A stretch of 64,000 nucleotides of DNA, taken from an uncultured Candidatus Saccharibacteria bacterium. GTDB lineage: Bacteria > Patescibacteriota > Saccharimonadia > Saccharimonadales > UBA10212. Of the stretch, positions 4,613-56,030 are shown in pieces. Every line of letters starts with the position of its first letter. Position 1 is the first letter of the stretch. The stretch lies in the NCBI GenBank assembly GCA_965231085.1, contig OZ246413.1:344971-408970 (forward strand). The letters are read 5' to 3'. The notes under the pieces were generated by a model. It searched no databases. It worked only from the letters and a program-made list of their open reading frames with translations, and was not told the DNA's origin. The translations under genes and the position numbers were made by a program.

Positions 4613-5908
4613 CTAAAGCGGCTTATGTACAGATAGCTTACTAATAATTTCGTCTATGCTTAATGTTTGCTCTTCGCCCTTATCGAGATCTCTCAATTTA
4701 ATTTTGCCCGAGTCAATCTCGGATTCACCCAAGAAAATTGCGTATCTTACACCACTTTTAACGGCACTTTTTATCTGGTGGTCAAGCTTGCGACCGGAGT
4801 TATCAACCGCAATCTTCAACCCAGCATCGCGAAGTTGACCAAGCTGTTTTTGCACCTTAGCGTATACGTCACCAATTAATATGGCCGTAATATGCGTCTC
4901 GGGTTTAAGCTTAGGCAAAAGTTTGTGAGTTTCTAAAAAGTTCTGCAGGGTAACATCGCCCATGCCAAAACCAACGGTCGCAACTGATTCAACCCCGAAC
5001 AAACCAACTAATCCATCGTAGCGGCCGCCACCAAACATAGATCTAATGTTCTCCGGGTTTGTATCAAAGACCTCGAAGACTATATCTGTGTAGTAATCCA
5101 TACCCCTGACAATTGAGGTGTCAAAAACGGCTTCAGTAATCCCGGATTCTTTGAGTAGATTGAACAATTTTTTCAAGTCGCTGACGGATGGGTGTGAGCT
5201 AACCGACGACGGTAAAGCCTCGACATTTGGACAATGTAAATATTCGATAAGCTGTGCAACATGATTAGCGTCTTTCAATAGATCTTGAGCCTCTTCTACA
5301 AAAGCCTCGCGAGGCATCTTATGTTTTCGGTCAATTAGCTTTTGAGCGGTAATAGAGTCCGCTTTTGATAACTTTAGGTGATCATTTAGAAAGTGATCTG
5401 TAAGTTTACGGCTACTAATTCTTATAACGTAACTGTCTTCTGGGGCCTTAAATGTCCTTAAAATTGAATTAGCAACGGCTATAATCTCATGATCTCCCTC
5501 CACACCCGATATACCAAATAGATCGACATTTAATTGCCAGTGTTCCCTGAGTCTGCCACGCTGCGGCCGCTCATAGCGCCAAAGATTAGGAATACTATAC
5601 CAGCGCAAGGGATATGATAATTCTTGACGGCGAGCAGCTACCATACGGCTAACAGAAGGAGTCATTTCAGGTCGAATCGCTACCTTGCGACCACCTCTAT
5701 CTTCAAACGAATATATTTGATCTCGTATAATCTCCTCGCCTGTCTTGGCTAGATAAATCTCCAGCGGCTCAATTATCGGCGCGTCGTACTCCTGGTAGCC
5801 ATAGCTCTCAACAACGTCGCGCAGTACTGAAAATATATATTTTTGAGCAGCTTTATCCTCGGGGTAAAAGTCGCGTGTGCCCTTATACGGTTGTTTATTT
5901 AAACTCAT
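4613..5908 (-). CDS. hisS: Histidyl-tRNA synthetase
   Basis: 431 aa with class II aaRS motifs and HisRS-specific blocks (KGTRDFYPED, RYERPQRGRLREHWQLNVDLFG, GGGRYDGL). Confidence 0.9.
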   Translation of the reverse strand: MSLNKQPYKGTRDFYPEDKAAQKYIFSVLRDVVESYGYQEYDAPIIEPLEIYLAKTGEEIIRDQIYSFEDRGGRKVAIRPEMTPSVSRMVAARRQELSYPLRWYSIPNLWRYERPQRGRLREHWQLNVDLFGISGVEGDHEIIAVANSILRTFKAPEDSYVIRISSRKLTDHFLNDHLKLSKADSITAQKLIDRKHKMPREAFVEEAQDLLKDANHVAQLIEYLHCPNVEALPSSVSSHPSVSDLKKLFNLLKESGITEAVFDTSIVRGMDYYTDIVFEVFDTNPENIRSMFGGGRYDGLVGLFGVESVATVGFGMGDVTLQNFLETHKLLPKLKPETHITAILIGDVYAKVQKQLGQLRDAGLKIAVDNSGRKLDHQIKSAVKSGVRYAIFLGESEIDSGKIKLRDLDKGEEQTLSIDEIISKLSVHKPL

Positions 5909-6100
5909 TATCAGTCAATTATATCTTAAGCCGTAAACAGTGAACAGCCACACCTTGTGCATTTAGCCTGTTGATTATATAATTTCGGCATCTTTGTTGA
6001 GGTAAATGTTTCACACCTGAAGTTCGCTTCCAAAGATGTACATTTTGGCAAGCAGACAAAGACCAGATCGCAATCCGACCACAAGATTGGAGGATCCGAA

Positions 6101-6349
6101 ATGGCAGTAGACGTATTAACCGACCTGGAAGCACTGAAGCACAGGCGCCTGGCGGACAGCTACCGGCTCGGCAGCTGCACGGCCATCGTCGAGCGCGGCG
6201 AGTTCTGCGGGCGGCCCAATGTCCGTACCAGTGGGCAGGGTCACACCTGCGTGTCGGAGCACGCCTGCCAGGCGTGTGGCCGCGAACCAAGCGCTGCCGG
6301 CCCGAGGTGCAAGATGTGCCCGGCTTACGGTGAAGATCATGGCGAGTGA
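6101..6349 (+). CDS. Hypothetical small Cys-rich protein (82 aa), high-GC island
   Basis: RBS GGAGGA lies 6 nt upstream of the ATG and third-codon positions are strongly GC-biased. Seven Cys include CQAC and CKMC pairs (zinc-ribbon-like). The stop overlaps the next start (ATCATGGCGAGTGA). Confidence 0.45.
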   Translation: MAVDVLTDLEALKHRRLADSYRLGSCTAIVERGEFCGRPNVRTSGQGHTCVSEHACQACGREPSAAGPRCKMCPAYGEDHGE

Positions 6350-6806
6350 CTCAGACGCTCTCGCACGGGGGTTCGATCTCGAGCTCTTCGGTGGCACCGG
6401 TGGGCCTCGCCCCTACGCCAGCCCGGCCTTGGACACGTCCAAGTGGATTCCATGGCCGGCCGGCCCCGGGCTGTGCGACCGCTGTGGCAAGCATGCCGAG
6501 CAGCGAGCCAAGTCGATCATCTTCCATGATGATCGGGAGGAAGAGTACGTCGGCTACTGCCAGGCGTGCTGTGACCGCTTCAAGTGGGAAAAGGCACTCA
6601 GCCAACTCCCGACTGGGCCGATCGTCGTCTTCCCGGGCGATCAGCTACAGCTAGCCACCCTGGTCACGCTCCACGAACTCTTCATCGAGTCGAGGGGCTG
6701 GAAGCGGGTCAACCCTCCCGGCTACTGGAAGAACCCTCGGAGGTTCAGGCCGCCGCTGAAGCTTCACGATGCGGTGCGCTATGAGATCGAGACCGAGTCA
6801 GCCTAG
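6339..6806 (+). CDS. Hypothetical zinc-ribbon-like protein (155 aa; alternative start at 6219 gives 195 aa)
   Basis: Its start is translationally coupled to the upstream ORF and third positions are GC-rich. It carries CDRCGKH...CQACCDRF (CxxC...CxxCC). A perfect 11-bp stem hairpin follows at 6828-6860. Confidence 0.45.
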   Translation: MASDSDALARGFDLELFGGTGGPRPYASPALDTSKWIPWPAGPGLCDRCGKHAEQRAKSIIFHDDREEEYVGYCQACCDRFKWEKALSQLPTGPIVVFPGDQLQLATLVTLHELFIESRGWKRVNPPGYWKNPRRFRPPLKLHDAVRYEIETESA

Positions 6807-6827
6807 CTACACCGCTGACCACCCGAC

Positions 6828-6868
6828 GTAGAGACGAGTGAACATATGCCTCGTCTCTACTGTTTGCG
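6828..6868 (+). terminator. Intrinsic-terminator-like hairpin after the island's small ORF pair
   Basis: GTAGAGACGAG-tgaacatatgc-CTCGTCTCTAC is followed by TGTTTG. Confidence 0.45.
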
Positions 6869-6937
6869 AGAATAAGTCTGCTTGCCATTAACCTAATTAT
6901 AAAAAGAAACTCTCCATGTTGAGAGTTCATATCCTGT

Positions 6938-7282
6938 ATGGTGGAACTAAACGGAACACTCTCGAACCCTGAAGTACGGGTTGAGGTTCTGGAGCTTTTT
7001 GGCTTGGTTGAGCTGATTCTGACCAGAGGGCCCAGTAGCTCAGAACGTCCTGATCCACCCAAGCGGGCTGGAGAGATCAAGCAAACGGTGATCCATGTGC
7101 TCCAGATGGCCGAGAAGCCAATGAGGGTCATGGACATCCATAGAGCCTGCGAGGAGTACCTAGACAGACCAGTCAACCGGTCTACAGTCTCGGACTGCCT
7201 GATCAAGCACTCAAAGGGACAGAGGCAGTTGTTTGTAGCTACAAGTCGAGGGCTCTACTCGAAAATTGAATTCATCGCCTAA
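6938..7282 (+). CDS. Hypothetical small protein, winged-helix-like (114 aa)
   Basis: Intermediate GC. The helix-turn-wing pattern (IHVLQMAEKPMRVMDIHRACEEYLDRPVNRSTVSDCLIKHSKGQRQLFVATSRGLY) suggests a DNA-binding fold. No confident family assignment. Confidence 0.35.
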   Translation: MVELNGTLSNPEVRVEVLELFGLVELILTRGPSSSERPDPPKRAGEIKQTVIHVLQMAEKPMRVMDIHRACEEYLDRPVNRSTVSDCLIKHSKGQRQLFVATSRGLYSKIEFIA

Positions 7283-7401
7283 AACCACGAACTTGTTCAT
7301 AGTCTTGGGTGAAGCCCCAGGATTAACGTACCTGGGTATTTAAGACCTTGGTGGTCTTACGGCTCTTGCGAGCAATGTTCGAACAGCCGATAACGGAGAG
7401 C

Positions 7402-8079
7402 TCAGGCGCGGCTGGCAGCCACGTACAGCTTGACCTCATCGGCCTTCTCACGGTCGATCTTGCCAGTCTCGATGTAGTGGTCGAGGAGCTGGGAGAGCGT
7501 GAATGCTGAGATGACTCGGATGCCCTCCTCGTCGGTGAGCCACTCCGAGCCTCCCTGCTCACGATCGACCAGCACCAGGAGGTCCCGAACCTCCATGCCA
7601 GCTAGCTCAAGGATCGACACAGCCTCGATCTTGCTGTCGGCCTGGGTGATCAGGTCGTCGACCAGCAGAACCTTGCCGGGCAGATCCCAATTTCCTTCCA
7701 GAAGACCGGCGATCCGTCGTAGGTCTGCGGACTCTTCCTTGTAGAGCCGGATCTGATTCACCGGTGACCACGAGACGAGGCGCTTCATCAGCGCGTCGGC
7801 AAGCGGTTCACCGGCATTCGGGATGCCCGCCACGTACCGAAAGTCGAGACCTTTGTTCAAGTGGATCATCCCATAGAGCAGGTCAGCGATCTGTTCGATC
7901 AGCTCAGGTGTCAGCGGGCCCGGTTTCGGGTTGTCGGGAGTCCGCAGGTTGAGGTAGATCGGCGACAGTGGTGCATCCGGCTGGATCTCATGGAGCTTCA
8001 GTCGGAAAGCGCCGAACTTGATCGCGCCGACCTCGAAAAGCTGGTCGGCGACCGTAGCAAATCTTCCTTCGAGCAACAA
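7402..8079 (-). CDS. pyrE: Orotate phosphoribosyltransferase (type-I PRTase fold)
   Basis: 225 aa. The PRPP-binding motif VLLVDDLITQADSKIEA corresponds to VMLVDDVITAGTAI of E. coli PyrE, and LVLVDREQGG matches LISLDRQERG. The N-terminal KFGAFRLK block is also present. It has a TTG start immediately after the pyrF stop (operon). High GC. Confidence 0.7.
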   Translation of the reverse strand: MLLEGRFATVADQLFEVGAIKFGAFRLKLHEIQPDAPLSPIYLNLRTPDNPKPGPLTPELIEQIADLLYGMIHLNKGLDFRYVAGIPNAGEPLADALMKRLVSWSPVNQIRLYKEESADLRRIAGLLEGNWDLPGKVLLVDDLITQADSKIEAVSILELAGMEVRDLLVLVDREQGGSEWLTDEEGIRVISAFTLSQLLDHYIETGKIDREKADEVKLYVAASRA

Positions 8080-8087
8080 TCCTCCTT

Positions 8088-9068
8088 TCAGATCTGAGCC
8101 AGCACGATCGAGATGTCGTTGTGCATGGCCGAGGTTGCAGACCTCGCGGCTTCGGCGAAGTCCTCGCCATCACTGGCGAAGATGATGCCGCGAGAGCCGT
8201 TGATGATCATGCCCTGGTCGTGGCTGTTGACGCCCGCTCTCACGGACGCTTCCAGCTCCCCGCCTTGAGCCCCGATCCCGGGGATCAAGATAGGCATGTC
8301 GCCGACGATCTTCCGAACCTCAGCCAGTTCGGCAGGGTATGTCGCGCCAACTACGACAGCGCAGTTGCCGTTGTAGTTCCAGCCGCGCGTGATGTTCCTG
8401 GCCACGATCTGATACAGCGGCACTTCGCGCTCTTCGTAGTCGTAGAGCTTGCCCGGGTCGCCTTGCTCAGTGATCCGCAGATCCTGGAACTCGCCGGCAC
8501 CGGGGTTGCTTGTCCGAACGAGGACGATGACACCCTTGTCCATCTGGTCGAGGAACGGCTTCATCGCCTCCATACCGAGGTATGGATGCACCGTCACGGC
8601 GTCAGCGGCCTGAGCCGCCGCAACGTAGCCGGCGTTTGTGTTGCCGATATCGCCCCGCTTGTAGTCGAGGATGACCGGGACCTCGGGCGCTACATTGTGG
8701 ATGTAGTCGATCGTGTCTTTCAGGGCCACCAACCCCGAGAAGCCGAGCGCCTCGTAGAACGCCGAGTTCGGCTTGTACGCGCAGACGAGGTGCTTGGTCG
8801 CGTCGATGATCGCTTCGTTGAAGTCGAGAATCGTGTCGCCGAGGATCTCTGCCATGTCGCCATAGCTCAGACCCTCCGGCAGATCCTCTCCTCGCTGAAG
8901 AACCGCGAAGGCGGCCTGGGCGATCAGCATCTCGTCCACGCTGTACGACCCGCGGCTCTTGATGTGCCGAACGGGCAGCTTCTGGATGTCGCTGTCGAGA
9001 CCGACGCAGACGAACTTGCCCTCAGCCCAACGGGCTTGAAGCAAGTCCATGAAGTTGCGTTGTGACAT
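8088..9068 (-). CDS. pyrF: Orotidine 5'-phosphate decarboxylase, long (type 2, actinobacterial-like) form
   Basis: 326 aa with VGLDSD, DYKRGDIGNT (the D-x-K-x-x-D OMPdecase signature) and ILIPGIGAQGG. RBS GAGGAGA precedes the ATG. High GC. The plus-strand 314-aa ORF over the same DNA is a shadow. Confidence 0.8.
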   Translation of the reverse strand: MSQRNFMDLLQARWAEGKFVCVGLDSDIQKLPVRHIKSRGSYSVDEMLIAQAAFAVLQRGEDLPEGLSYGDMAEILGDTILDFNEAIIDATKHLVCAYKPNSAFYEALGFSGLVALKDTIDYIHNVAPEVPVILDYKRGDIGNTNAGYVAAAQAADAVTVHPYLGMEAMKPFLDQMDKGVIVLVRTSNPGAGEFQDLRITEQGDPGKLYDYEEREVPLYQIVARNITRGWNYNGNCAVVVGATYPAELAEVRKIVGDMPILIPGIGAQGGELEASVRAGVNSHDQGMIINGSRGIIFASDGEDFAEAARSATSAMHNDISIVLAQI

Positions 9069-9101
9069 ATTTCCGCTTCTCCTCTCGTAGTAGTCTGGCT
9101 T

Positions 9102-9153
9102 TTCCAGACCGGATTACTGCCTTCCACGCAGCAAGCACTAATCCAGTCTGGAA
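9102..9153. repeat. Long-range inverted repeat (13-nt arms, 26-nt spacer) in the pyrF 5' leader, with an overlapping alternative local hairpin (9093-9109)
   Basis: TTCCAGACCGGAT ... ATCCAGTCTGGAA. GTCTGG-ctttt-CCAGAC overlaps arm 1, giving mutually exclusive structures. Confidence 0.45.
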
Positions 9154-9233
9154 GAACCCGAAGAGAACTAACAATAAGAACCTGCTTGTCAAAGAATCAT
9201 CAATGGAGCTAAGTGCTCAACAAAGATGACGAG

Positions 9234-9262
9234 ATTATACAATAATCGGCCGGAATACTCAA
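9234..9262 (-). promoter_or_regulatory. Candidate sigma70 promoter for pyrF-pyrE (extended -10)
   Basis: On the minus strand: TTGAGT, a 17-nt spacer, then TGTATAAT. Located about 160 nt upstream of the pyrF ATG. Sequence-only prediction. Confidence 0.35.
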
Positions 9263-9326
9263 CTATTGGTGGGTGTTGTAAGTAACGCTTTTCAGTAAAC
9301 TAACTGCGAATTCTCGAAGACATGAA

Positions 9327-9353
9327 AAATGACCTCGTCTACTGAGGTCATTT
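9327..9353 (-). terminator. Terminator hairpin downstream of tRNA-Leu
   Basis: Perfect 10-bp inverted repeat AAATGACCTC-gtctact-GAGGTCATTT. On the minus strand it is followed by UUUUUCAUGUCUU. Confidence 0.5.
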
Positions 9354-9383
9354 AACTTCTGATAACGATAACCATTACCATTA

Positions 9384-9468
9384 TGGTGGGGACGAAAGGA
9401 CTTGAACCTTCATGGGTTGCCCCGCTAGCTCCTAAGGCTAGTGCGTCTGCCAATTTCGCCACGTCCCC
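9384..9468 (-). tRNA. tRNA-Leu (anticodon UAG), CCA encoded
   Basis: Cloverleaf: acceptor GGGGACG/CGTCCCC, 3-bp D stem, anticodon stem CTAGC/GCTAG with loop CTTAGGA (anticodon TAG), long 13-nt variable arm, T loop TTCAAGT, 3' ACCA. Its 3' end faces the GC island. Confidence 0.85.
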
Positions 9469-9635
9469 TCGTTGAAGCAAAAGTTTCTACATTTCGCTTC
9501 CAGACACATCCGAAAGCTCAATCTTAATCTTTGCTTCTCCTCTCATTTTTGCAAAAACCTGCACAGGTGTTTTCACAAAAATGGTAATCGCACAGGGGTT
9601 ATTTTACCTTAAATCCTGCTATTTTTAAAGGGCCC

Positions 9636-12056
9636 TTATTGCTTATCTAGATTTAGCTTTAATTTGCCAACTGCCGCTTCAGCCATAAGCGCTAAGTTCC
9701 GTTTTACGTCTTCCATTTTGTTCAGCCCATAGCCTAGCGAATAGCCTGAATATTCGTCTAGGATTTCATCCATTATTTCAATTCTTTGTGCTAGATCGTA
9801 TTGACCAATAATCTGATGCATAATTATGCCCATTTGGGTTTCGTCAATAATTAGGTCAGCCTCCGAGTCTCGGGCGATATCTCTGCCGACGCGTCCTGCT
9901 AGCCGAAGCAATCTTAGATTGTAAATCGATTGATCTCTTTGCCACTCTTCCCAGCTATCAGCAGGATTTTCGTATTGTCTCGCCCGAGCAAGATAAGTCG
10001 CCGCTCTGTCTTTTGTGTAGGCTCTAGGTATTTTTGGCGCAATGAAGCCACCAGAATCGGAGGCTATATTCCTAAGCTGTGTAAGGCTACCAAGTCTAGC
10101 CAGGGCTTGAGATTCAAGCTGTCTGACTCTTTCTCTAGTTAGGTCCAGCTCATAACCGACCTGGTCGAGTGTATATGGTTCCTTGCCATCAAAACCAAAC
10201 CTTTGTCTTATAATTATCGCCTCTCTTTCAGGCAAGGAATCCACAACTGAGGCTATCTCTTGGGTTAACATCTCTTCTTCTGCTATTTCCTCGGTAGTCT
10301 GATGGTCAGGATTACGAGCATCTACAACCTGCAATCCCAGGCCCGATGGGTAGCCATCAAAACCCCATAATGCTAGTCTGGCCATGTCTTTAGCGCTACC
10401 ATGCCTGGCAAGATTTTTACGTTCAATAAAGTCTTCGATATCTTCTACCTCGGGGACGACTCGTTGCTCCCGAACGTACCGGCGCATAAAGCGGCCGATT
10501 TCCCGGGCGGTAGTGGCTGGAAAGCCTATTGAGCTTCCTGGTACTTCTGGTAGGTCCCACTCTTTTTCCAAAATTTGGTTATACCGCCTGATATCACGAC
10601 TATGAGTATCAGTGCGCTTAGAGTTGTATTTTACTCTAAGTTGTTTTAGTAAATAGGCATCATTGGCTAGAAGGTTAAGCCATAACTCGGAATTAATAAT
10701 CCGCTCAAGATTTGACCGCTTTGAAGTAGAGCCACCATTACCGACCCGCTCTGATCCAATTACCCGTCCGAGATGAACCGATTTTTCATCCATCACGTCC
10801 AGGCTAGTGTACTGATATTTGTTGGGTGAAACATCCATAAAATCAACGATAATCGACTCTAAGTTACCCGGTTTTTTACGAAGTACCCTACCTAGTTCTT
10901 GGGTCTTTCGAACACGCGAGGTAGTTGGGCACGTAGCGATTAAAAAGCTAGCTCGGCTGCTATCCCAGCCTTCGGCTATGGCTTTTACATATGTAAGAAC
11001 GTCAATTTGCCCGTTTTCAAAGGCCTGTAATATTCTTTGATTTTCTTCTTGGCTCAAGAAACTGCCGACCGCTCGGGCTCTAATAAATTTTTTAGTACCG
11101 TCTGCAAGCGTTATAAAACTGCCGTCCAGCTCATCGGCTAGAGACCGAGCGTGAACAGAATTCTCCCCCGGTACACAGCTAATAATTCCCTGGCGGCCAT
11201 CGGCTACAAAATTCCGGGCAAACTCTAGAGCACTGTCGTTTCGAGCCTTGAGGTCTATTAGTTTTTCAAGTTCCCGTTGCGTGTATTCGTCTGCATATTC
11301 GTCTAAGTCAGGGATTTCGGCATCGGTGGTATAAAGCAAGCATGTTACCGGCGCAACTAAATCGTTTTCGATAGCTTCTTTGAGTGATAATTCATGAATT
11401 GGTGTTTCAAAAATTTCGTTGACACTTTTTCCAACGCGATATTTTGGAGTGGCAGTAAAACCAATTTTTGTGGCTTTTGGAGATATGCTAATTAAATTAC
11501 GCTTTGTCACTGCCCCAAGACTCTTATGTGCCTCGTCAGCCAAAATAACGTCAAACTCTCCCAGCTCACCAGTCTGAACAAAGTTATTCATTCCAGCGTA
11601 GGTCGCAACGACTACCTTGTCGGTTTTTGTAGCTTTTGATCCACCATAATGCTTGCCTACGTCTGCTGGGCTAAGTCTTTGGGCAAATTTTGCCAAGCCT
11701 TTATCTTCAATATCGCCGGACAGCTGGCTAACCTGAGTTCGCATGTCTGCTAAAACCAAAACTCTTAAGCCGCTTCCGGCAAATATTTCGGCTAGTTTGG
11801 CAATTAGATATGTTTTTCCGGTTGATGTTGGTAGCTCAACATATCCCCGGTTATAACCCATAGCAAGGGCTTCTGAAATATCAAAAAAAACCTCCTGTTG
11901 ATGAGGGTATGCCTCGTCCTGATCATCAAGCCAATGTTCACTTCTGAAGTATTGGTCTAAGGCAAGAGCGGGGCCTTCTAGATTTTCTTCTTGCGAGAAA
12001 ACTCGTACGCCAGATTCAAACGGGGACGAGTTTGCTCGCTCTATAGCCGTATTCAC
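9636..12056 (-). CDS. SF2 (DEAH-type) helicase fused to a sigma-70 region 4 domain
   Basis: 806 aa. The N-terminus has helicase motifs I (PTSTGKTY), II (ILADEAHK), III (FTATP) and VI (QELGRVLR). Residues about 600-655 read LPEREAIIIRQRFGFDGKEPYTLDQVGYELDLTRERVRQLESQALARLG, closely matching sigma-70 region 4.2 (compare E. coli RpoD [48 protein letters not shown]). The C-terminal roughly 150 aa are unassigned. Confidence 0.75.
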   Translation of the reverse strand: MNTAIERANSSPFESGVRVFSQEENLEGPALALDQYFRSEHWLDDQDEAYPHQQEVFFDISEALAMGYNRGYVELPTSTGKTYLIAKLAEIFAGSGLRVLVLADMRTQVSQLSGDIEDKGLAKFAQRLSPADVGKHYGGSKATKTDKVVVATYAGMNNFVQTGELGEFDVILADEAHKSLGAVTKRNLISISPKATKIGFTATPKYRVGKSVNEIFETPIHELSLKEAIENDLVAPVTCLLYTTDAEIPDLDEYADEYTQRELEKLIDLKARNDSALEFARNFVADGRQGIISCVPGENSVHARSLADELDGSFITLADGTKKFIRARAVGSFLSQEENQRILQAFENGQIDVLTYVKAIAEGWDSSRASFLIATCPTTSRVRKTQELGRVLRKKPGNLESIIVDFMDVSPNKYQYTSLDVMDEKSVHLGRVIGSERVGNGGSTSKRSNLERIINSELWLNLLANDAYLLKQLRVKYNSKRTDTHSRDIRRYNQILEKEWDLPEVPGSSIGFPATTAREIGRFMRRYVREQRVVPEVEDIEDFIERKNLARHGSAKDMARLALWGFDGYPSGLGLQVVDARNPDHQTTEEIAEEEMLTQEIASVVDSLPEREAIIIRQRFGFDGKEPYTLDQVGYELDLTRERVRQLESQALARLGSLTQLRNIASDSGGFIAPKIPRAYTKDRAATYLARARQYENPADSWEEWQRDQSIYNLRLLRLAGRVGRDIARDSEADLIIDETQMGIIMHQIIGQYDLAQRIEIMDEILDEYSGYSLGYGLNKMEDVKRNLALMAEAAVGKLKLNLDKQ

Positions 12057-12727: not shown

Positions 12728-13117
12728 TTACGTCGAGCAGGACTCGTGCGCCGGCTTGCCCCACACCGTGGTTGCGTCCACGACGGTGACGTTCAGCCCC
12801 TTGATGAAGCACCTCACGTCCCAGTTGTAGACGATCACCGTGGCATGGTCGCTGGCGACCACAGTCGTGTGACCGTGCGCCGACACGACCGCATTGCCGG
12901 AGGCAATGGCAGTCGCACCCTTGTCGATGGACACGCAGCCGTTCTTGGAGACGACCACGACGACGCGCCCGGTGTAGGCCGACTGCTTGGTCGGGTCGGG
13001 GCAGGACGTCAGGTAGAGGTTGGTCGGCTTCGGCTTGTTGGCCGCGCTGGCCACGCCCGTGAGGGCGAGCATGGCGGCAACGCCGACGAGAACGAGACCG
13101 ATGAGCTGCTTACGCAT
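12728..13117 (-). CDS. Secreted small protein (signal peptide, 4 Cys), high-GC cassette
   Basis: 129 aa. Sec signal MRKQLIGLVLVGVAAMLALTGVASA with an AxA site. Repetitive V/A/T-rich beta-like segments and GC-rich third positions. RBS GGGGAAG. The surrounding DNA is low GC. Confidence 0.6.
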   Translation of the reverse strand: MRKQLIGLVLVGVAAMLALTGVASAANKPKPTNLYLTSCPDPTKQSAYTGRVVVVVSKNGCVSIDKGATAIASGNAVVSAHGHTTVVASDHATVIVYNWDVRCFIKGLNVTVVDATTVWGKPAHESCST

Positions 13118-50265: not shown

Positions 50266-50637
50266 ATGAGCGAAAAGAAATTGGCCCATTTTGAAGATAG
50301 AGAAGATGTCCGAAAAGTGATTGGAATACACCTCGAGTCCATGGGACACTCAGTTGTGGCAGTAGCAACCAATCTACGCGAGGCCCTGGAGACTATCGAT
50401 CAAATTGCCAGTGGCGGTATTGAGGTTGACGCTATCATTCTTGACGGAAATCTTAAACAGGGTGCAAATGATAATCAAGACGCGAGAGACATTGTTGCCT
50501 ACGCCAAATCAAAGGGAGTAACAGTCCCAATAATTGGTTTTGCAAGCGAATCTTTAACAAAGCGAGGTATTGCAGTTGATCACGACCCAACAAAACAAGA
50601 TATACCTGGGTTACTAAAAATTATCGGCGATCTTTAG
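50266..50637 (+). CDS. Stand-alone receiver-like (CheY-fold) domain protein, atypical
   Basis: 123 aa with a beta-alpha pattern and a conserved Asp in AIILDGNL, but the acidic pocket DD is replaced (FEDRED). Tentative. Confidence 0.35.
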   Translation: MSEKKLAHFEDREDVRKVIGIHLESMGHSVVAVATNLREALETIDQIASGGIEVDAIILDGNLKQGANDNQDARDIVAYAKSKGVTVPIIGFASESLTKRGIAVDHDPTKQDIPGLLKIIGDL

Positions 50638-55535: not shown

Positions 55536-55542
55536 TGTAGAA

Positions 55543-55615
55543 CTGCGCGCGCGGGGTTCGAACCCGCGTTACCTGCACCGTTGGCAGGGGTTCTAGGCCA
55601 CTGAACTAGCGCGCA
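55543..55615 (-). tRNA. tRNA-Arg (anticodon ACG) with atypical A33 and G37
   Basis: Acceptor TGCGCGC/GCGCGCA, D arm GTTC...GAAC, anticodon stem CCTGC/GCAGG with loop CAACGGT, T loop TTCGAAC. No CCA is encoded. It directly abuts the upstream tRNA. Confidence 0.65.
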
Positions 55616-55688
55616 AGCGGCTGAGAGGGCTCGAACCTCCGACCTCCCTCGATCATGAGGGCGCTCTAGCCTACTGAGCTACAGCCGC
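55616..55688 (-). tRNA. tRNA with an abnormal 6-nt anticodon loop (CAU or GAU family; Met/Ile-like body)
   Basis: The body closely resembles tRNA-Ile(GAU) (D arm TAGCTCAGTAGGCTAGAGC; AGGTCGGAGGTTCGAGCCCTCTC). The anticodon region CCCTC-ATGATC-GAGGG is one nt short of the canonical 5-7-5 arrangement. Confidence 0.5.
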
Positions 55689-55740
55689 GGGCAAATCTTG
55701 GTGCATATGCTGCAACTACAATTTCTACCCAGAACTACTA

Positions 55741-55814
55741 AGTCGGTGATGGGGCTCGAACCCACGACCTCCTGCATGGCAAGCAGGCGCTCTAGCCAAC
55801 TGAGCTACACCGAC
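55741..55814 (-). tRNA. tRNA-Gly (anticodon GCC)
   Basis: Acceptor GTCGGTG/CACCGAC, anticodon stem CCTGC/GCAGG with loop TTGCCAT, T loop TTCGAGC. No CCA is encoded. Confidence 0.8.
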
Positions 55815-55865
55815 CGGCAAATCTTTTGGAGCTACTACTAGCTACGACAAATTGTTGCCACTTAA

Positions 55866-56030
55866 TGGGCGTGGGAGGAATCGAACCTCCGACCTCTAGT
55901 TTCTCTATCTGACGTTTCAATTTGATGTCTTGAAACTTCCCCGAGCGTCCCCGGGACTCTCAATCATCTTTACTTTATCAGCAAAACAGAGAAAAACAAC
56001 TAGCACTCTAACCAACTGAGCTACACACCC
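55866..56030 (-). tRNA. tRNA gene interrupted by a roughly 90-nt insertion in the anticodon arm (putative intron or disrupted tRNA); identity undetermined
   Basis: The 5' half GGGTGTGTAGCTCAGTTGGTTAGAGTG-CTAGT and the 3' half ACTAG-AGGTC-GGAGGTTCGATTCCTCC-CACGCCC-A form a canonical acceptor/D/T/anticodon-stem cloverleaf. Between them lie 98 nt that fold into helices of their own (UUCUCUG...UAGAGAA; GUUUCAA-9nt-UUGAAAC; CCCG...CGGG). Confidence 0.55.

Follow-up and report, generated by a model that had tools for sequence, protein, structure and literature searches.

Here we describe a GC-rich block in the genome of an uncultured Saccharibacterium, found within a 64-kb stretch of DNA (contig OZ246413.1, positions 344,971 to 408,970; hereafter the window, whose own coordinates we use throughout). 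The block lies between a tRNA-Leu(UAG) gene and hisS and carries pyrF and pyrE, together with two Cys-rich open reading frames (ORFs), cys82 and cys155, and a small winged-helix ORF, wh114. Our reading, to which we would give a probability of about 0.68 taken as a whole, is that the block was acquired horizontally, in at least two modules, in a hot spot of gene flux between tRNA-Leu and hisS, and that its host is a soil or environmental Saccharibacterium. Module A (about 7283-9262) would be a self-contained cassette made up of a sigma-70-type promoter, a structured leader RNA, pyrF, pyrE, and a terminator region, supplying or replacing the last two steps of pyrimidine synthesis. Module B (5955-7282; cys82, cys155, and wh114) would be a later addition: having replaced an ancestral UPF0259-like gene beside hisS, it would be driven by a second copy of the pyrF promoter and transcript start, whose duplication made a 47-nt inverted repeat. 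The donor would be a high-GC lineage outside the sampled genomes, more likely within or near the Patescibacteria than within the Actinomycetota. Uptake followed by recombination is a plausible insertion route, given the natural competence of Saccharibacteria (PMC10633639).

The compositional step is abrupt. The window averages 0.453 (45.3%) GC and both flanks of the island run at 0.39-0.48 in 300-nt windows; on the same scale the island reaches 0.60-0.68 at 6001-6750, 0.50-0.52 at 6750-7500, and 0.58-0.62 at 7350-9150. Elsewhere in the window, GC exceeds 0.54 in only two places, a rise at 12.5-13.0 kb and the tRNA cluster of 55.5-56 kb. Tetranucleotide distance to the rest of the window, taken in 3-kb windows, is largest for 6001-9000, at 0.58; the median is 0.18 and the 95th percentile 0.31. 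The signal is located in synonymous sites—GC content at third codon positions (GC3) is 0.82 in pyrF, 0.76 in pyrE, 0.76 in cys82, 0.79 in cys155, and 0.61 in wh114, compared with 0.42±0.03 (maximum 0.505) in 43 native ORFs, giving z-scores of 6-12.5. Third-base usage in the island genes, and in the related genes discussed below, follows the order C3 > G3 >> T3 > A3, as in a high-GC genome. An abrupt high-GC block with GC-rich third codon positions had been described in an earlier reading of the bare sequence (the original prediction); windowed GC, tetranucleotide distance, and GC3 all agree with it, and in both tetranucleotide and codon usage the island is an outlier against the rest of the window.

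The pyrF-pyrE pair is not confined to this locus. In a neighbour-joining tree of 86 PyrF sequences, one clade unites the window with six other contigs (L169, L088, L170, L084, L174, and L087); an eighth case, L175, was fetched later and lies outside the tree, being placed by its 60% identity and shared leader. All eight cases are GC3-rich islands (0.67-0.89) in lower-GC contigs (0.31-0.56), and in L084, L087, L088, L170, L174, and L175 the cassette occupies a different locus in each. The window's pyrF has a GC3 of 0.82 with flanks at 0.42. In L084, pyrF, pyrE, and an orphan ORF, orf144 (GC3 0.75, 0.71, and 0.88), are flanked by sequence at 0.43; in L087, pyrF and a different phosphoribosyltransferase (PRTase) gene (0.89 and 0.78) by sequence at 0.47; and in L088, pyrD, an amidohydrolase-like gene, pyrF, and pyrE (0.72, 0.67, 0.82-0.83, and 0.81) by sequence at 0.56. 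L170, an NCBI Saccharimonadales metagenome-assembled genome (MAG), has pyrF alone (0.83, flanks 0.55), and L175 has pyrF, a PRTase gene, and the orphan orf193 (0.70, 0.74, and 0.93, flanks 0.31-0.36). In L174 the two enzymes are fused (543 aa; GC3 0.67-0.69, flanks about 0.47), and the neighbours of the fusion—pyrB, an unassigned 395-aa ORF, and pyrD—have native composition (0.34-0.41). Because the same pair and its leader form a GC-rich island at different places in related genomes, we conclude that the cassette travels.

L084 is the clearest case of relocation, since this contig is syntenic with the window over 46.3-55.4 kb (58-81% amino acid identity), yet its pyrFE genes lie between tktC and fba. 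The tktC-fba gap is thus a second variable site: in the window it holds only a 123-aa ORF (50266-50637, plus strand) with a weak match to response-regulator receivers, and in L084 (6867-11437) the pyrF-pyrE-orf144 island is found there together with a 294-aa ORF and genes for a cupin and a CAP-domain protein. The cassette itself also varies. The gene after pyrF in L087 (4837-5487) and L175 (2720-3424) encodes a PRTase with a Cys motif that is only 21-23% identical to the window's PyrE, and therefore the partner of pyrF has been swapped within the clade. We also asked whether the ORFs that follow pyrE in L084 and L175 are distantly related to wh114, and so a regulator in common; hhalign put the probabilities at 2% and 0.6%, and we rejected the idea.

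What keeps these genes GC-rich is the question on which the rival readings turn. More distant PyrF relatives (46-57% identity) have GC3 excesses of -0.09 to +0.21 and are mostly of native composition; with the clade included, 17 of 47 loci lie above +0.1 and none below -0.1. One alternative, which we consider unlikely, is that there was no recent transfer: the cassette would be an old Saccharibacteria resident that moves within and between these genomes, its synonymous sites being actively kept GC-rich, through selection on mRNA or biased gene conversion, instead of being the relic of a donor. In its fullest form, also unlikely, this makes the cassette a long-term, self-regulated mobile unit whose GC3 is held at about 0.8 in genomes of about 0.4, with the leader as a pyrimidine-responsive riboregulator moving with the genes. 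In favour of the idea, GC3 is 0.67-0.89 in all eight cases even though the proteins are only 58-72% identical, so that synonymous sites must be saturated; PyrF and PyrE have diverged between the window and L084 as much as housekeeping proteins have; an AT-rich promoter and a highly conserved leader travel with the genes; and in L174 only pyrFE is GC-rich, beside native pyrB and pyrD. Against it, unrelated ORFs in four islands share the codon signature (orf144 at 0.88, orf193 at 0.93, cys82 and cys155, and the pyrD at 0.72 and amidohydrolase-like gene at 0.67 of L088), as would be expected of a donor's composition; orf129, an unrelated second gene in the window, has a GC3 of 0.90; and no known mechanism keeps one gene at a GC3 of 0.8 in a genome of 0.42. 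A pyrimidine-sparing mRNA, in which genes for uridine 5'-monophosphate (UMP) synthesis would be depleted of U and C, fails as such a mechanism; C is the commonest third base (0.36-0.53). A polarised test of GC3 change between the window and L169 counted 15 strong-to-weak changes at 159 sites and 3 weak-to-strong changes at 8 sites, with saturated outgroups and only those 8 W sites to draw on. As unrelated passenger genes share the codon signature, we prefer repeated donation by a diverse high-GC lineage over maintained composition.

Several observations nevertheless weigh against horizontal acquisition from a high-GC donor. Only three contigs of the clade, L084, L169, and L170, are shown to be Saccharibacteria. 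PyrF and PyrE are 62% and 64% identical between the window and L084, and housekeeping proteins are 58-81% identical, a divergence that would also be compatible with long residence in Saccharibacteria followed by relocation. We found no donor genome—every clade context examined is itself an island, and we infer the high-GC reservoir. The window contains no integrase, transposase, direct repeat, or target duplication that would explain insertion; the original prediction had likewise seen neither an integrase or transposase nor a duplicated tRNA 3' end, and domain scans and a repeat search of the window agree. The promoter and leader are AT-rich, with a canonical TATAAT, and fit a low-GC host better than a donor of 65% GC. 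Finally, PyrE scores below all of the curated cut-offs (73 of 208 bits for NF010382, 50.5 of 106.8 for TIGR00336, and 24.5 of 26.3 for PF00156), and this bears on what the cassette encodes.

The assignment of pyrF is secure. The gene (8088-9068, minus strand) encodes an orotidine 5'-monophosphate (OMP) decarboxylase of subfamily 2, scoring 224.8 bits against TIGR02127 (pyrF_sub2; cut-off 110.6) and 98.7 bits against PF00215 (OMPdecase; cut-off 27; E 5.8e-28). OMP decarboxylases are recognized by a catalytic D-x-K-x-x-D array and a phosphate-binding PGIGAQGG loop. Both are kept here, and D25, K99, D135, K137, D140, and P263-G270 are invariant in a 24-sequence alignment (A1). An insertion of about 37 aa around residues 33-70 is not found in the closest relatives (326 versus 289 aa). 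pyrE (7402-8079, minus strand) encodes a PyrE-like orotate phosphoribosyltransferase (OPRT) of a subtype resembling the domain in eukaryotic UMP synthase (UMPS), with a TTG start at 8079 or 8076 after an AAGGAGG. The pyrF stop codon TGA (8090-8088) is followed by AAGGAGG and then TTG, so the gap is 8-11 nt and contains the ribosome-binding motif, not the 1-4 nt originally given; the pair itself and its motifs (DYKRGDIGNT, PGIGAQGG, and VLLVDDLIT) were correctly recognized.

For PyrE, the OPRT assignment draws on full-length homology to a characterised OPRT (the human domain 2wns, 4.3e-22, residues 12-221, end to end), a PRPP-binding acidic motif, and linkage to pyrF, with pyrE and pyrF adjacent in five loci and fused in L174. 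The motifs SPIYLNLR, VLLVDDLITQADSK, and DREQGG are conserved in the subfamily. A Ser stands where the flexible-loop Lys aligns (the second K of human RKETKDYG), and for this reason we infer OPRT activity from homology only. By that homology, PyrE would convert orotate and phosphoribosyl pyrophosphate (PRPP) to OMP; PyrF, whose catalytic motifs are intact, would convert OMP to UMP. Between the window and the congener L169, PyrF differs at 54 amino acids and at 50 synonymous codons, giving a rough ratio of nonsynonymous to synonymous substitution (dN/dS) of about 0.3. This rough estimate is high for a housekeeping enzyme; it is indicative of purifying selection and, together with pyrF-pyrE adjacency and the L174 fusion, supports these roles for the pair.

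These sequences also bear on the donor. The best PyrF matches are metagenome proteins at 60-72% identity; the best 120 span 54-72%, and the named sources among them are all Patescibacteria (Uhrbacteria, Saccharimonadales, Parcubacteria, and Paceibacterota). Among solved structures, the Leishmania OMP decarboxylase-OPRT (OMPDC-OPRT) is the best match (2.5e-42, 148 bits), with 4mjz at 1.9e-40. Chain 3v75, which we take to be the Streptomyces avermitilis enzyme, reaches 71.6 bits (5.5e-19).

A second alternative, and one we judge quite improbable, is host-to-epibiont transfer from a high-GC actinobacterial host such as Actinomyces, Schaalia, or another member of the Actinomycetota. Codon usage of the C3 > G3 >> T3 > A3 kind at a GC3 of about 0.8 looks actinobacterial, and homologues of wh114 occur in contigs of 56-66% GC. 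Set against this, no named actinobacterial protein is found among the best 120 PyrF matches (at least 54% identity), the Streptomyces-type structure scores less than half of the Leishmania type (71.6 versus 148 bits), and the clade nests among sequences of the CPR (candidate phyla radiation) type in the 86-sequence tree. Nor is there a homologue of cys155 among about 15 billion proteins, which would be unusual for a gene from the well-sampled Actinomycetota, and the organism's relatives are environmental Saccharimonadales, not oral ones. Cultivated Saccharibacteria do live on Actinobacteria and are naturally competent (PMC10633639), and transfer from Actinomycetota to Saccharimonadia beside tRNA genes has been reported (bioRxiv 10.64898/2026.09.16.751625). 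The original interpretation therefore stands in part: the foreign composition, the hot spot beside tRNA-Leu, and the Saccharibacterium hold up; the Actinomyces/Schaalia-type donor, with Actinomycetales as best PyrF hits, lacks support, as the named best matches are all Patescibacteria and the nearest relatives are themselves islands.

A phage or plasmid vector was also considered and rejected: IMG/VR holds no PyrF relatives, tblastn with wh114 gave no matches in 50,697 phage records and 72,556 plasmids and with cys155 none in the phage records, and PHROG matches of the island proteins are absent or insignificant.

The chromosomal setting is that of a Saccharibacterium, as had been supposed. 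The best hisS relatives in the Genome Taxonomy Database (GTDB; one genome per species) are all Saccharimonadales or Saccharibacteria MAGs, at 55-67% identity, and by hisS these relatives are environmental. The rest of the window carries ordinary Saccharibacteria core genes—trigger factor, ClpP, RecG, MurT/GatD-like proteins, a PBP-type transglycosylase, NusA, DnaE, GatA/B, UvrB, pentose-phosphate and glycolytic genes, and PheS/T. The tRNA-Leu(UAG) gene (9384-9468, minus strand; read from its anticodon, tag) points its 3' end toward the island and lies about 284 nt from the GC step, close to the 280 nt first estimated. It also sits between rsmD and hisS in L004, L005, L006, L034, and L062, and is the conserved anchor of a variable gap. 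We compared 80 Saccharibacteria hisS loci from the same database: tig and clpP come after hisS wherever the contig extends, and all 58 loci that reach far enough on the other side have recG and rsmD before it. Neither pyrF nor pyrE occurs within 10 kb in any of the 80. The length of the rsmD-hisS gap varies between 136 bp and 8.1 kb, and its usual contents are tRNA-Leu(UAG) and a gene for about 240 aa, opposite in strand to hisS; this gene adjoins hisS as the common state among relatives, and in L169 it has a weak match to Pfam UPF0259. Since both the length and the content of this gap vary, the island lies in a hot spot of gene flux.

The same comparison divides the island in two. L169, a congener from another project (SRR22388098), is 87-89% identical in DNA to window 7275-9404, and its gene order is tRNA-Leu 3' end, promoter, leader, pyrF, pyrE, UPF0259-like gene, hisS. 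It lacks wh114, cys155, and cys82, the UPF0259-like gene being in their place, and the shared part ends at the wh114 stop (window 7275). The island, which had been treated as one unit, is therefore a composite of at least two modules. Module B could be a later change in the window's lineage or could have been lost in L169; the ancestral state seen in the relatives favours gain. At 1-130 of L169, upstream of pyrF, there is a tRNA-Leu-like 3' end (AAGTCCTTTTCCGCCTACCA) with an inverted T-arm copy (AAGGACTTGAACC) about 100 nt before it, and ARAGORN finds no intact tRNA in this interval; the piece may be an artefact of the end of the assembly, or else what is left of a tRNA rearranged where the insertion took place.

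Independent assemblies settle whether the junctions are real. The exact PyrF is recorded on five contigs, and the sequence is matched at 100% on three contigs from two runs: L001 and L003 (given as one 103-kb contig, SRR13076588) and L002 (SRR13076587), the last of which, at 4,071 bp, covers window 5378-9448 and so both island junctions. A chimera of the assembly or contamination of the bin, in which a high-GC fragment of another organism was joined to a Saccharibacteria contig, had been named as the main alternative and would suit the abrupt GC step and the lack of mobility genes in the island, but it is effectively refuted by these two-run matches, by identical PyrF on contigs up to 669 kb, by the diverged congener from a separate project with pyrFE at the same tRNA junction and matching neighbours on both the tRNA and hisS sides, and by a low-GC promoter and leader, continuous with the flanks, that would drive the GC-rich genes.

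Upstream of pyrF, the cassette carries a conserved 5' leader RNA motif (9086-9178, minus strand), a box plus a 20-bp hairpin about 20 nt from the pyrF start, which is present in seven of the eight clade cases. The pyrF upstream regions of the window, L169, L170, L084, L087, and L175 can be aligned and share one layout: a -10 box (TTTTATAAT in L084, L087, and L175; TATAAT in the window, L169, and L170), a short variable 5' hairpin, the box GGTGTTCTTTAACAA, and the 20-bp hairpin. Four loci carry the box without a single difference, against PyrF identities of only about 58-65%; in the window and L169 it has diverged. A covariance model (R1) seeded with these six sequences scores the window's leader at 91.7 bits, and its fold has a z-score of -4.15. 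Over seven sequences, 96.4% of hairpin cells are paired, compared with 26-56% in slid controls; four pairs show compensatory changes (six cells), and covariation exceeds that of all 500 shuffles (500/500). That the structure forms in the sense RNA is indicated by its abundant G-U pairs and by the difference in score between the strands (92 versus 37 bits).

R1 has one match outside its seed, L088 156-248 (71 bits, E 3e-14), just upstream of the pyrD that is the first gene of that contig's pyrD-...-pyrF-pyrE operon. Matches are confined to the upstream regions of clade pyr operons, with none in 80 more distant pyrF loci, in L174, or in 1.33 Mb of Saccharibacteria hisS loci. Rfam gives no match to the window's leader at the gathering threshold, and up to E 10 it gives only chance miRNA-hairpin matches in the window and L084. 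On its 3' side the hairpin has an A-rich run and no U-run, and for that reason we do not regard it as an intrinsic terminator. A leader peptide starting in the conserved box (GTG TTC TTT AAC, or M-F-F-N, by eye) was rejected; its frame relative to the hairpin is not kept in L084 and L088, and the Shine-Dalgarno-like GAGG directly abuts the GTG. The leader most likely regulates expression of the pyr cassette, and we propose it as an undescribed conserved RNA and a candidate regulator of pyrimidine genes.

The island is bracketed by a 47-nt imperfect inverted repeat whose arms read as promoters. The left arm (5955-6001, plus strand) has TTGTGC, 17 nt, TATAAT, and a start-of-transcript box CATCTTTGTTGAG, and points toward cys82; the right arm (9216-9262, minus strand), which is the predicted pyrFE promoter, has TTGAGT, 17 nt, TATAAT, and CATCTTTGTTGAG, matching the promoter consensus at 10 of 12 positions. 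Both arms are thus sigma-70-like, as judged from the hexamers read in the sequence, with the same 17-nt spacing and the same 13 nt after it, and both face inward; their promoter function is predicted. The arms are complementary at 36 of 47 positions (77%), and at 25 of 28 in the core. The alignment score of the repeat is 41, compared with 17.5±2.3 (maximum 32) for shuffles, and the 24-nt core pattern occurs only at the two arm sites in the window, where none would be expected by chance. As L169 holds the pyrF-side copy only (274-297), the repeat is best explained as a duplicated promoter and transcript start. Transposon ends were rejected as an explanation: there is no transposase, the flanks CAGCCACACC and CTATTGGTGG differ and so show no target duplication, and L169 has one arm. 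The common start region suggests co-regulation of the cys82 and pyrF operons. Both predicted transcripts (5985-6040; 9190-9232 on the minus strand) would open with a 5'-terminal stem-loop formed by the box CAUCUUUG and its downstream complement.

Module B begins with cys82 (6101-6349, plus strand), an 82-aa Cys-rich ORF (CxxC...CxxC) with a GGAGG 7 nt before its ATG. Its GC at the three codon positions (0.65/0.57/0.76) supports the reading frame and it is called as a gene in Logan contigs; it has no Pfam, PHROG, or NCBIfam match. cys155 (6339-6806, plus strand; 155 aa, CxxC...CxxCC), whose frame is likewise backed by its GC3 of 0.79, starts at an ATG that overlaps the cys82 stop by 11 nt, an arrangement that suggests translational coupling—as had been proposed for these two Cys-rich ORFs. 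cys155 matches only itself among 5.8 billion proteins, the remaining matches in a HMMER scan of 1.84 billion representatives are repeat proteins, and its AlphaFold model, from a single sequence, is poor (mean predicted local distance difference test score, pLDDT, of 46).

wh114 (6938-7282, plus strand; 114 aa, GC3 0.61) belongs to a small family of nine proteins and has no sequence-family match in Pfam, PHROG, or NCBIfam. AlphaFold2 and Foldseek together point to a C-terminal winged-helix domain, as first suspected: the model has pLDDT >90 at residues 43-110, with helices at 43-57, 64-75, and 81-90 and strands at 99-101 and 106-109. The best Foldseek matches are Rok, Zur, Fur, and Z-alpha domains, all weak (TM-scores of about 0.5, E 3e-3 to 1e-1); with a predicted three-helix bundle, a beta-hairpin wing, and these structural matches, wh114 qualifies as a winged helix-turn-helix at the level of fold. 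Its homologues in 56-66% GC contigs include L172 (66% GC) and L173 (80% DNA identity); comparing these two contigs with the other loci gave no matches informative about their taxonomy.

Between the convergent stops of wh114 and pyrE lies a conserved non-coding element of about 96 nt (7283-7380, no strand assigned) with two hairpins, CCCAGG..CCTGGG and AGACC..GGTCT, each with a variable loop. It is found in L169 and, at 82% identity, at the same locus (2354-2448) in L062, which belongs to a distant Saccharibacterium with a HisS of 58% amino acid identity; there its conservation far exceeds that of the adjacent wh114-like gene (43% amino acid identity). It has no Rfam match, and is probably a bidirectional terminator or a small RNA.

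Other features of the window are worth recording. An 806-aa ORF (9636-12056, minus strand), between rsmD and tRNA-Leu, fuses a ResIII/SWI2-SNF2/Helicase_C ATPase to a sigma-70 region 4 (residues 606-655); it has native composition (GC3 0.39), and none of the 80 relatives has it in the rsmD-tRNA-Leu gap. The second high-GC gene mentioned above, orf129 (12728-13117, minus strand; z = 15), is 3.6 kb from the island; its N-terminus (MRKQLIGLVLVGVAAMLALTGVASA) resembles a signal peptide, and it has several Cys. The recG-rsmD gap, in which it lies, contains an ORF of 80 aa or more in 45 relatives; for most of the 25 listed, this is a conserved gene of about 274 aa (MYSGTTLT...) with native composition. 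In place of orf129, the Logan gene caller annotated an antisense 148-aa ORF. In the tRNA cluster (55542-56030, minus strand), ARAGORN calls a tRNA with an undetermined two-base anticodon at 55616-55688; an Rfam tRNA match over 165 nt at 55866-56030 (full model, 1-71), not called by ARAGORN, suggests that a tRNA gene here is interrupted by about 90 nt of inserted or intron sequence.

CPR bacteria, Saccharibacteria included, are believed to rely on their hosts for nucleotides, and the cassette indicates that the end of the pyrimidine pathway can be patched or replaced in such reduced genomes by gene transfer. It may serve as an orotate-salvage shortcut, as first proposed, or as the last part of a complete pathway. 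The window contains no other pyr genes and no PRPP synthase within its 64 kb; pyrD adjoins the cassette in two clade members (L088 and L174), and L174 also has pyrB. One curated Saccharibacterium, from soil, has neither PRPP synthesis nor any of the steps to UMP (PMC6031116), and near-complete de novo nucleotide pathways have been reported for Ca. Lutisaccharimonas of the Saccharimonadia (bioRxiv 10.64898/2026.09.16.751625). What is new here is the clade-wide pattern of islands, the composite structure, the promoter duplication, and an undescribed conserved leader RNA—a candidate RNA regulator in a phylum whose gene regulation is almost entirely uncharted. That all eight cases are islands means either that an unsampled high-GC donor repeatedly feeds low-GC Saccharibacteria or that something keeps these genes GC-rich. 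High-GC DNA has entered the stretch from recG to hisS on more than one occasion. In addition, pyrE and pyrF are the classic markers for counter-selection with 5-fluoroorotate, which is relevant as Saccharibacteria are now genetically tractable.

Comparison with known systems places the island near several of them. Like composite transposons and miniature inverted-repeat transposable elements, it is bracketed by an inverted repeat (5955-6001 and 9216-9262); here, however, the arms are inward promoters, there is no transposase or target duplication, and the congener has one arm. Its leader recalls the leader regulators of other pyr genes (the PyrR-binding attenuators, RF00515, and the attenuation or reiterative transcription, sensitive to UTP, of enterobacterial pyrBI, pyrE, and carAB) in being a structured RNA directly upstream, and the T-rich start-of-transcript box (CATCTTTG) resembles the UTP-sensitive enterobacterial pyr promoters. 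It differs in having no Rfam match, including to RF00515, no U-run after the hairpin, and no pyrR nearby.

The enzymes are closest to the kinetoplastid and bacterial OMPDC-OPRT (3qw3/3qw4; NF004034), which provides the best structural match to PyrF (2.5e-42) and has the same pyrF-pyrE order; L174 has a true fusion of this kind (543 aa), and PyrE resembles the OPRT of eukaryotic UMPS (2wns, 4.3e-22). In the window, by contrast, the genes are separate, 8-11 nt apart, and score 121 and 54 bits against a cut-off of 656 for NF004034; the window's PyrE has an insertion before SPIYLNLR, and reads TQADS at the place that aligns with TSGSS of the human OPRT domain and STGET of the Leishmania enzyme.

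As a whole, the block is most like a tRNA-adjacent metabolic island, with its compositional step, its accessory metabolic cargo, a tRNA 3' end nearby, and its absence from the same locus in relatives. It departs from that model in having no integrase, duplicated tRNA 3' end, or direct repeats: the island ORFs have no Pfam, PHROG, or NCBIfam match to tyrosine or serine recombinases, and in the search for attL/attR repeats of the tRNA 3' end a 25-mer (at most 3 mismatches) and a 15-mer (at most 2) each occurred once in the window, with none from the repeat scan. The cargo is small, about 3.3 kb, and—in the clearest difference from islands of this class—the same cargo recurs at non-tRNA sites in related genomes.

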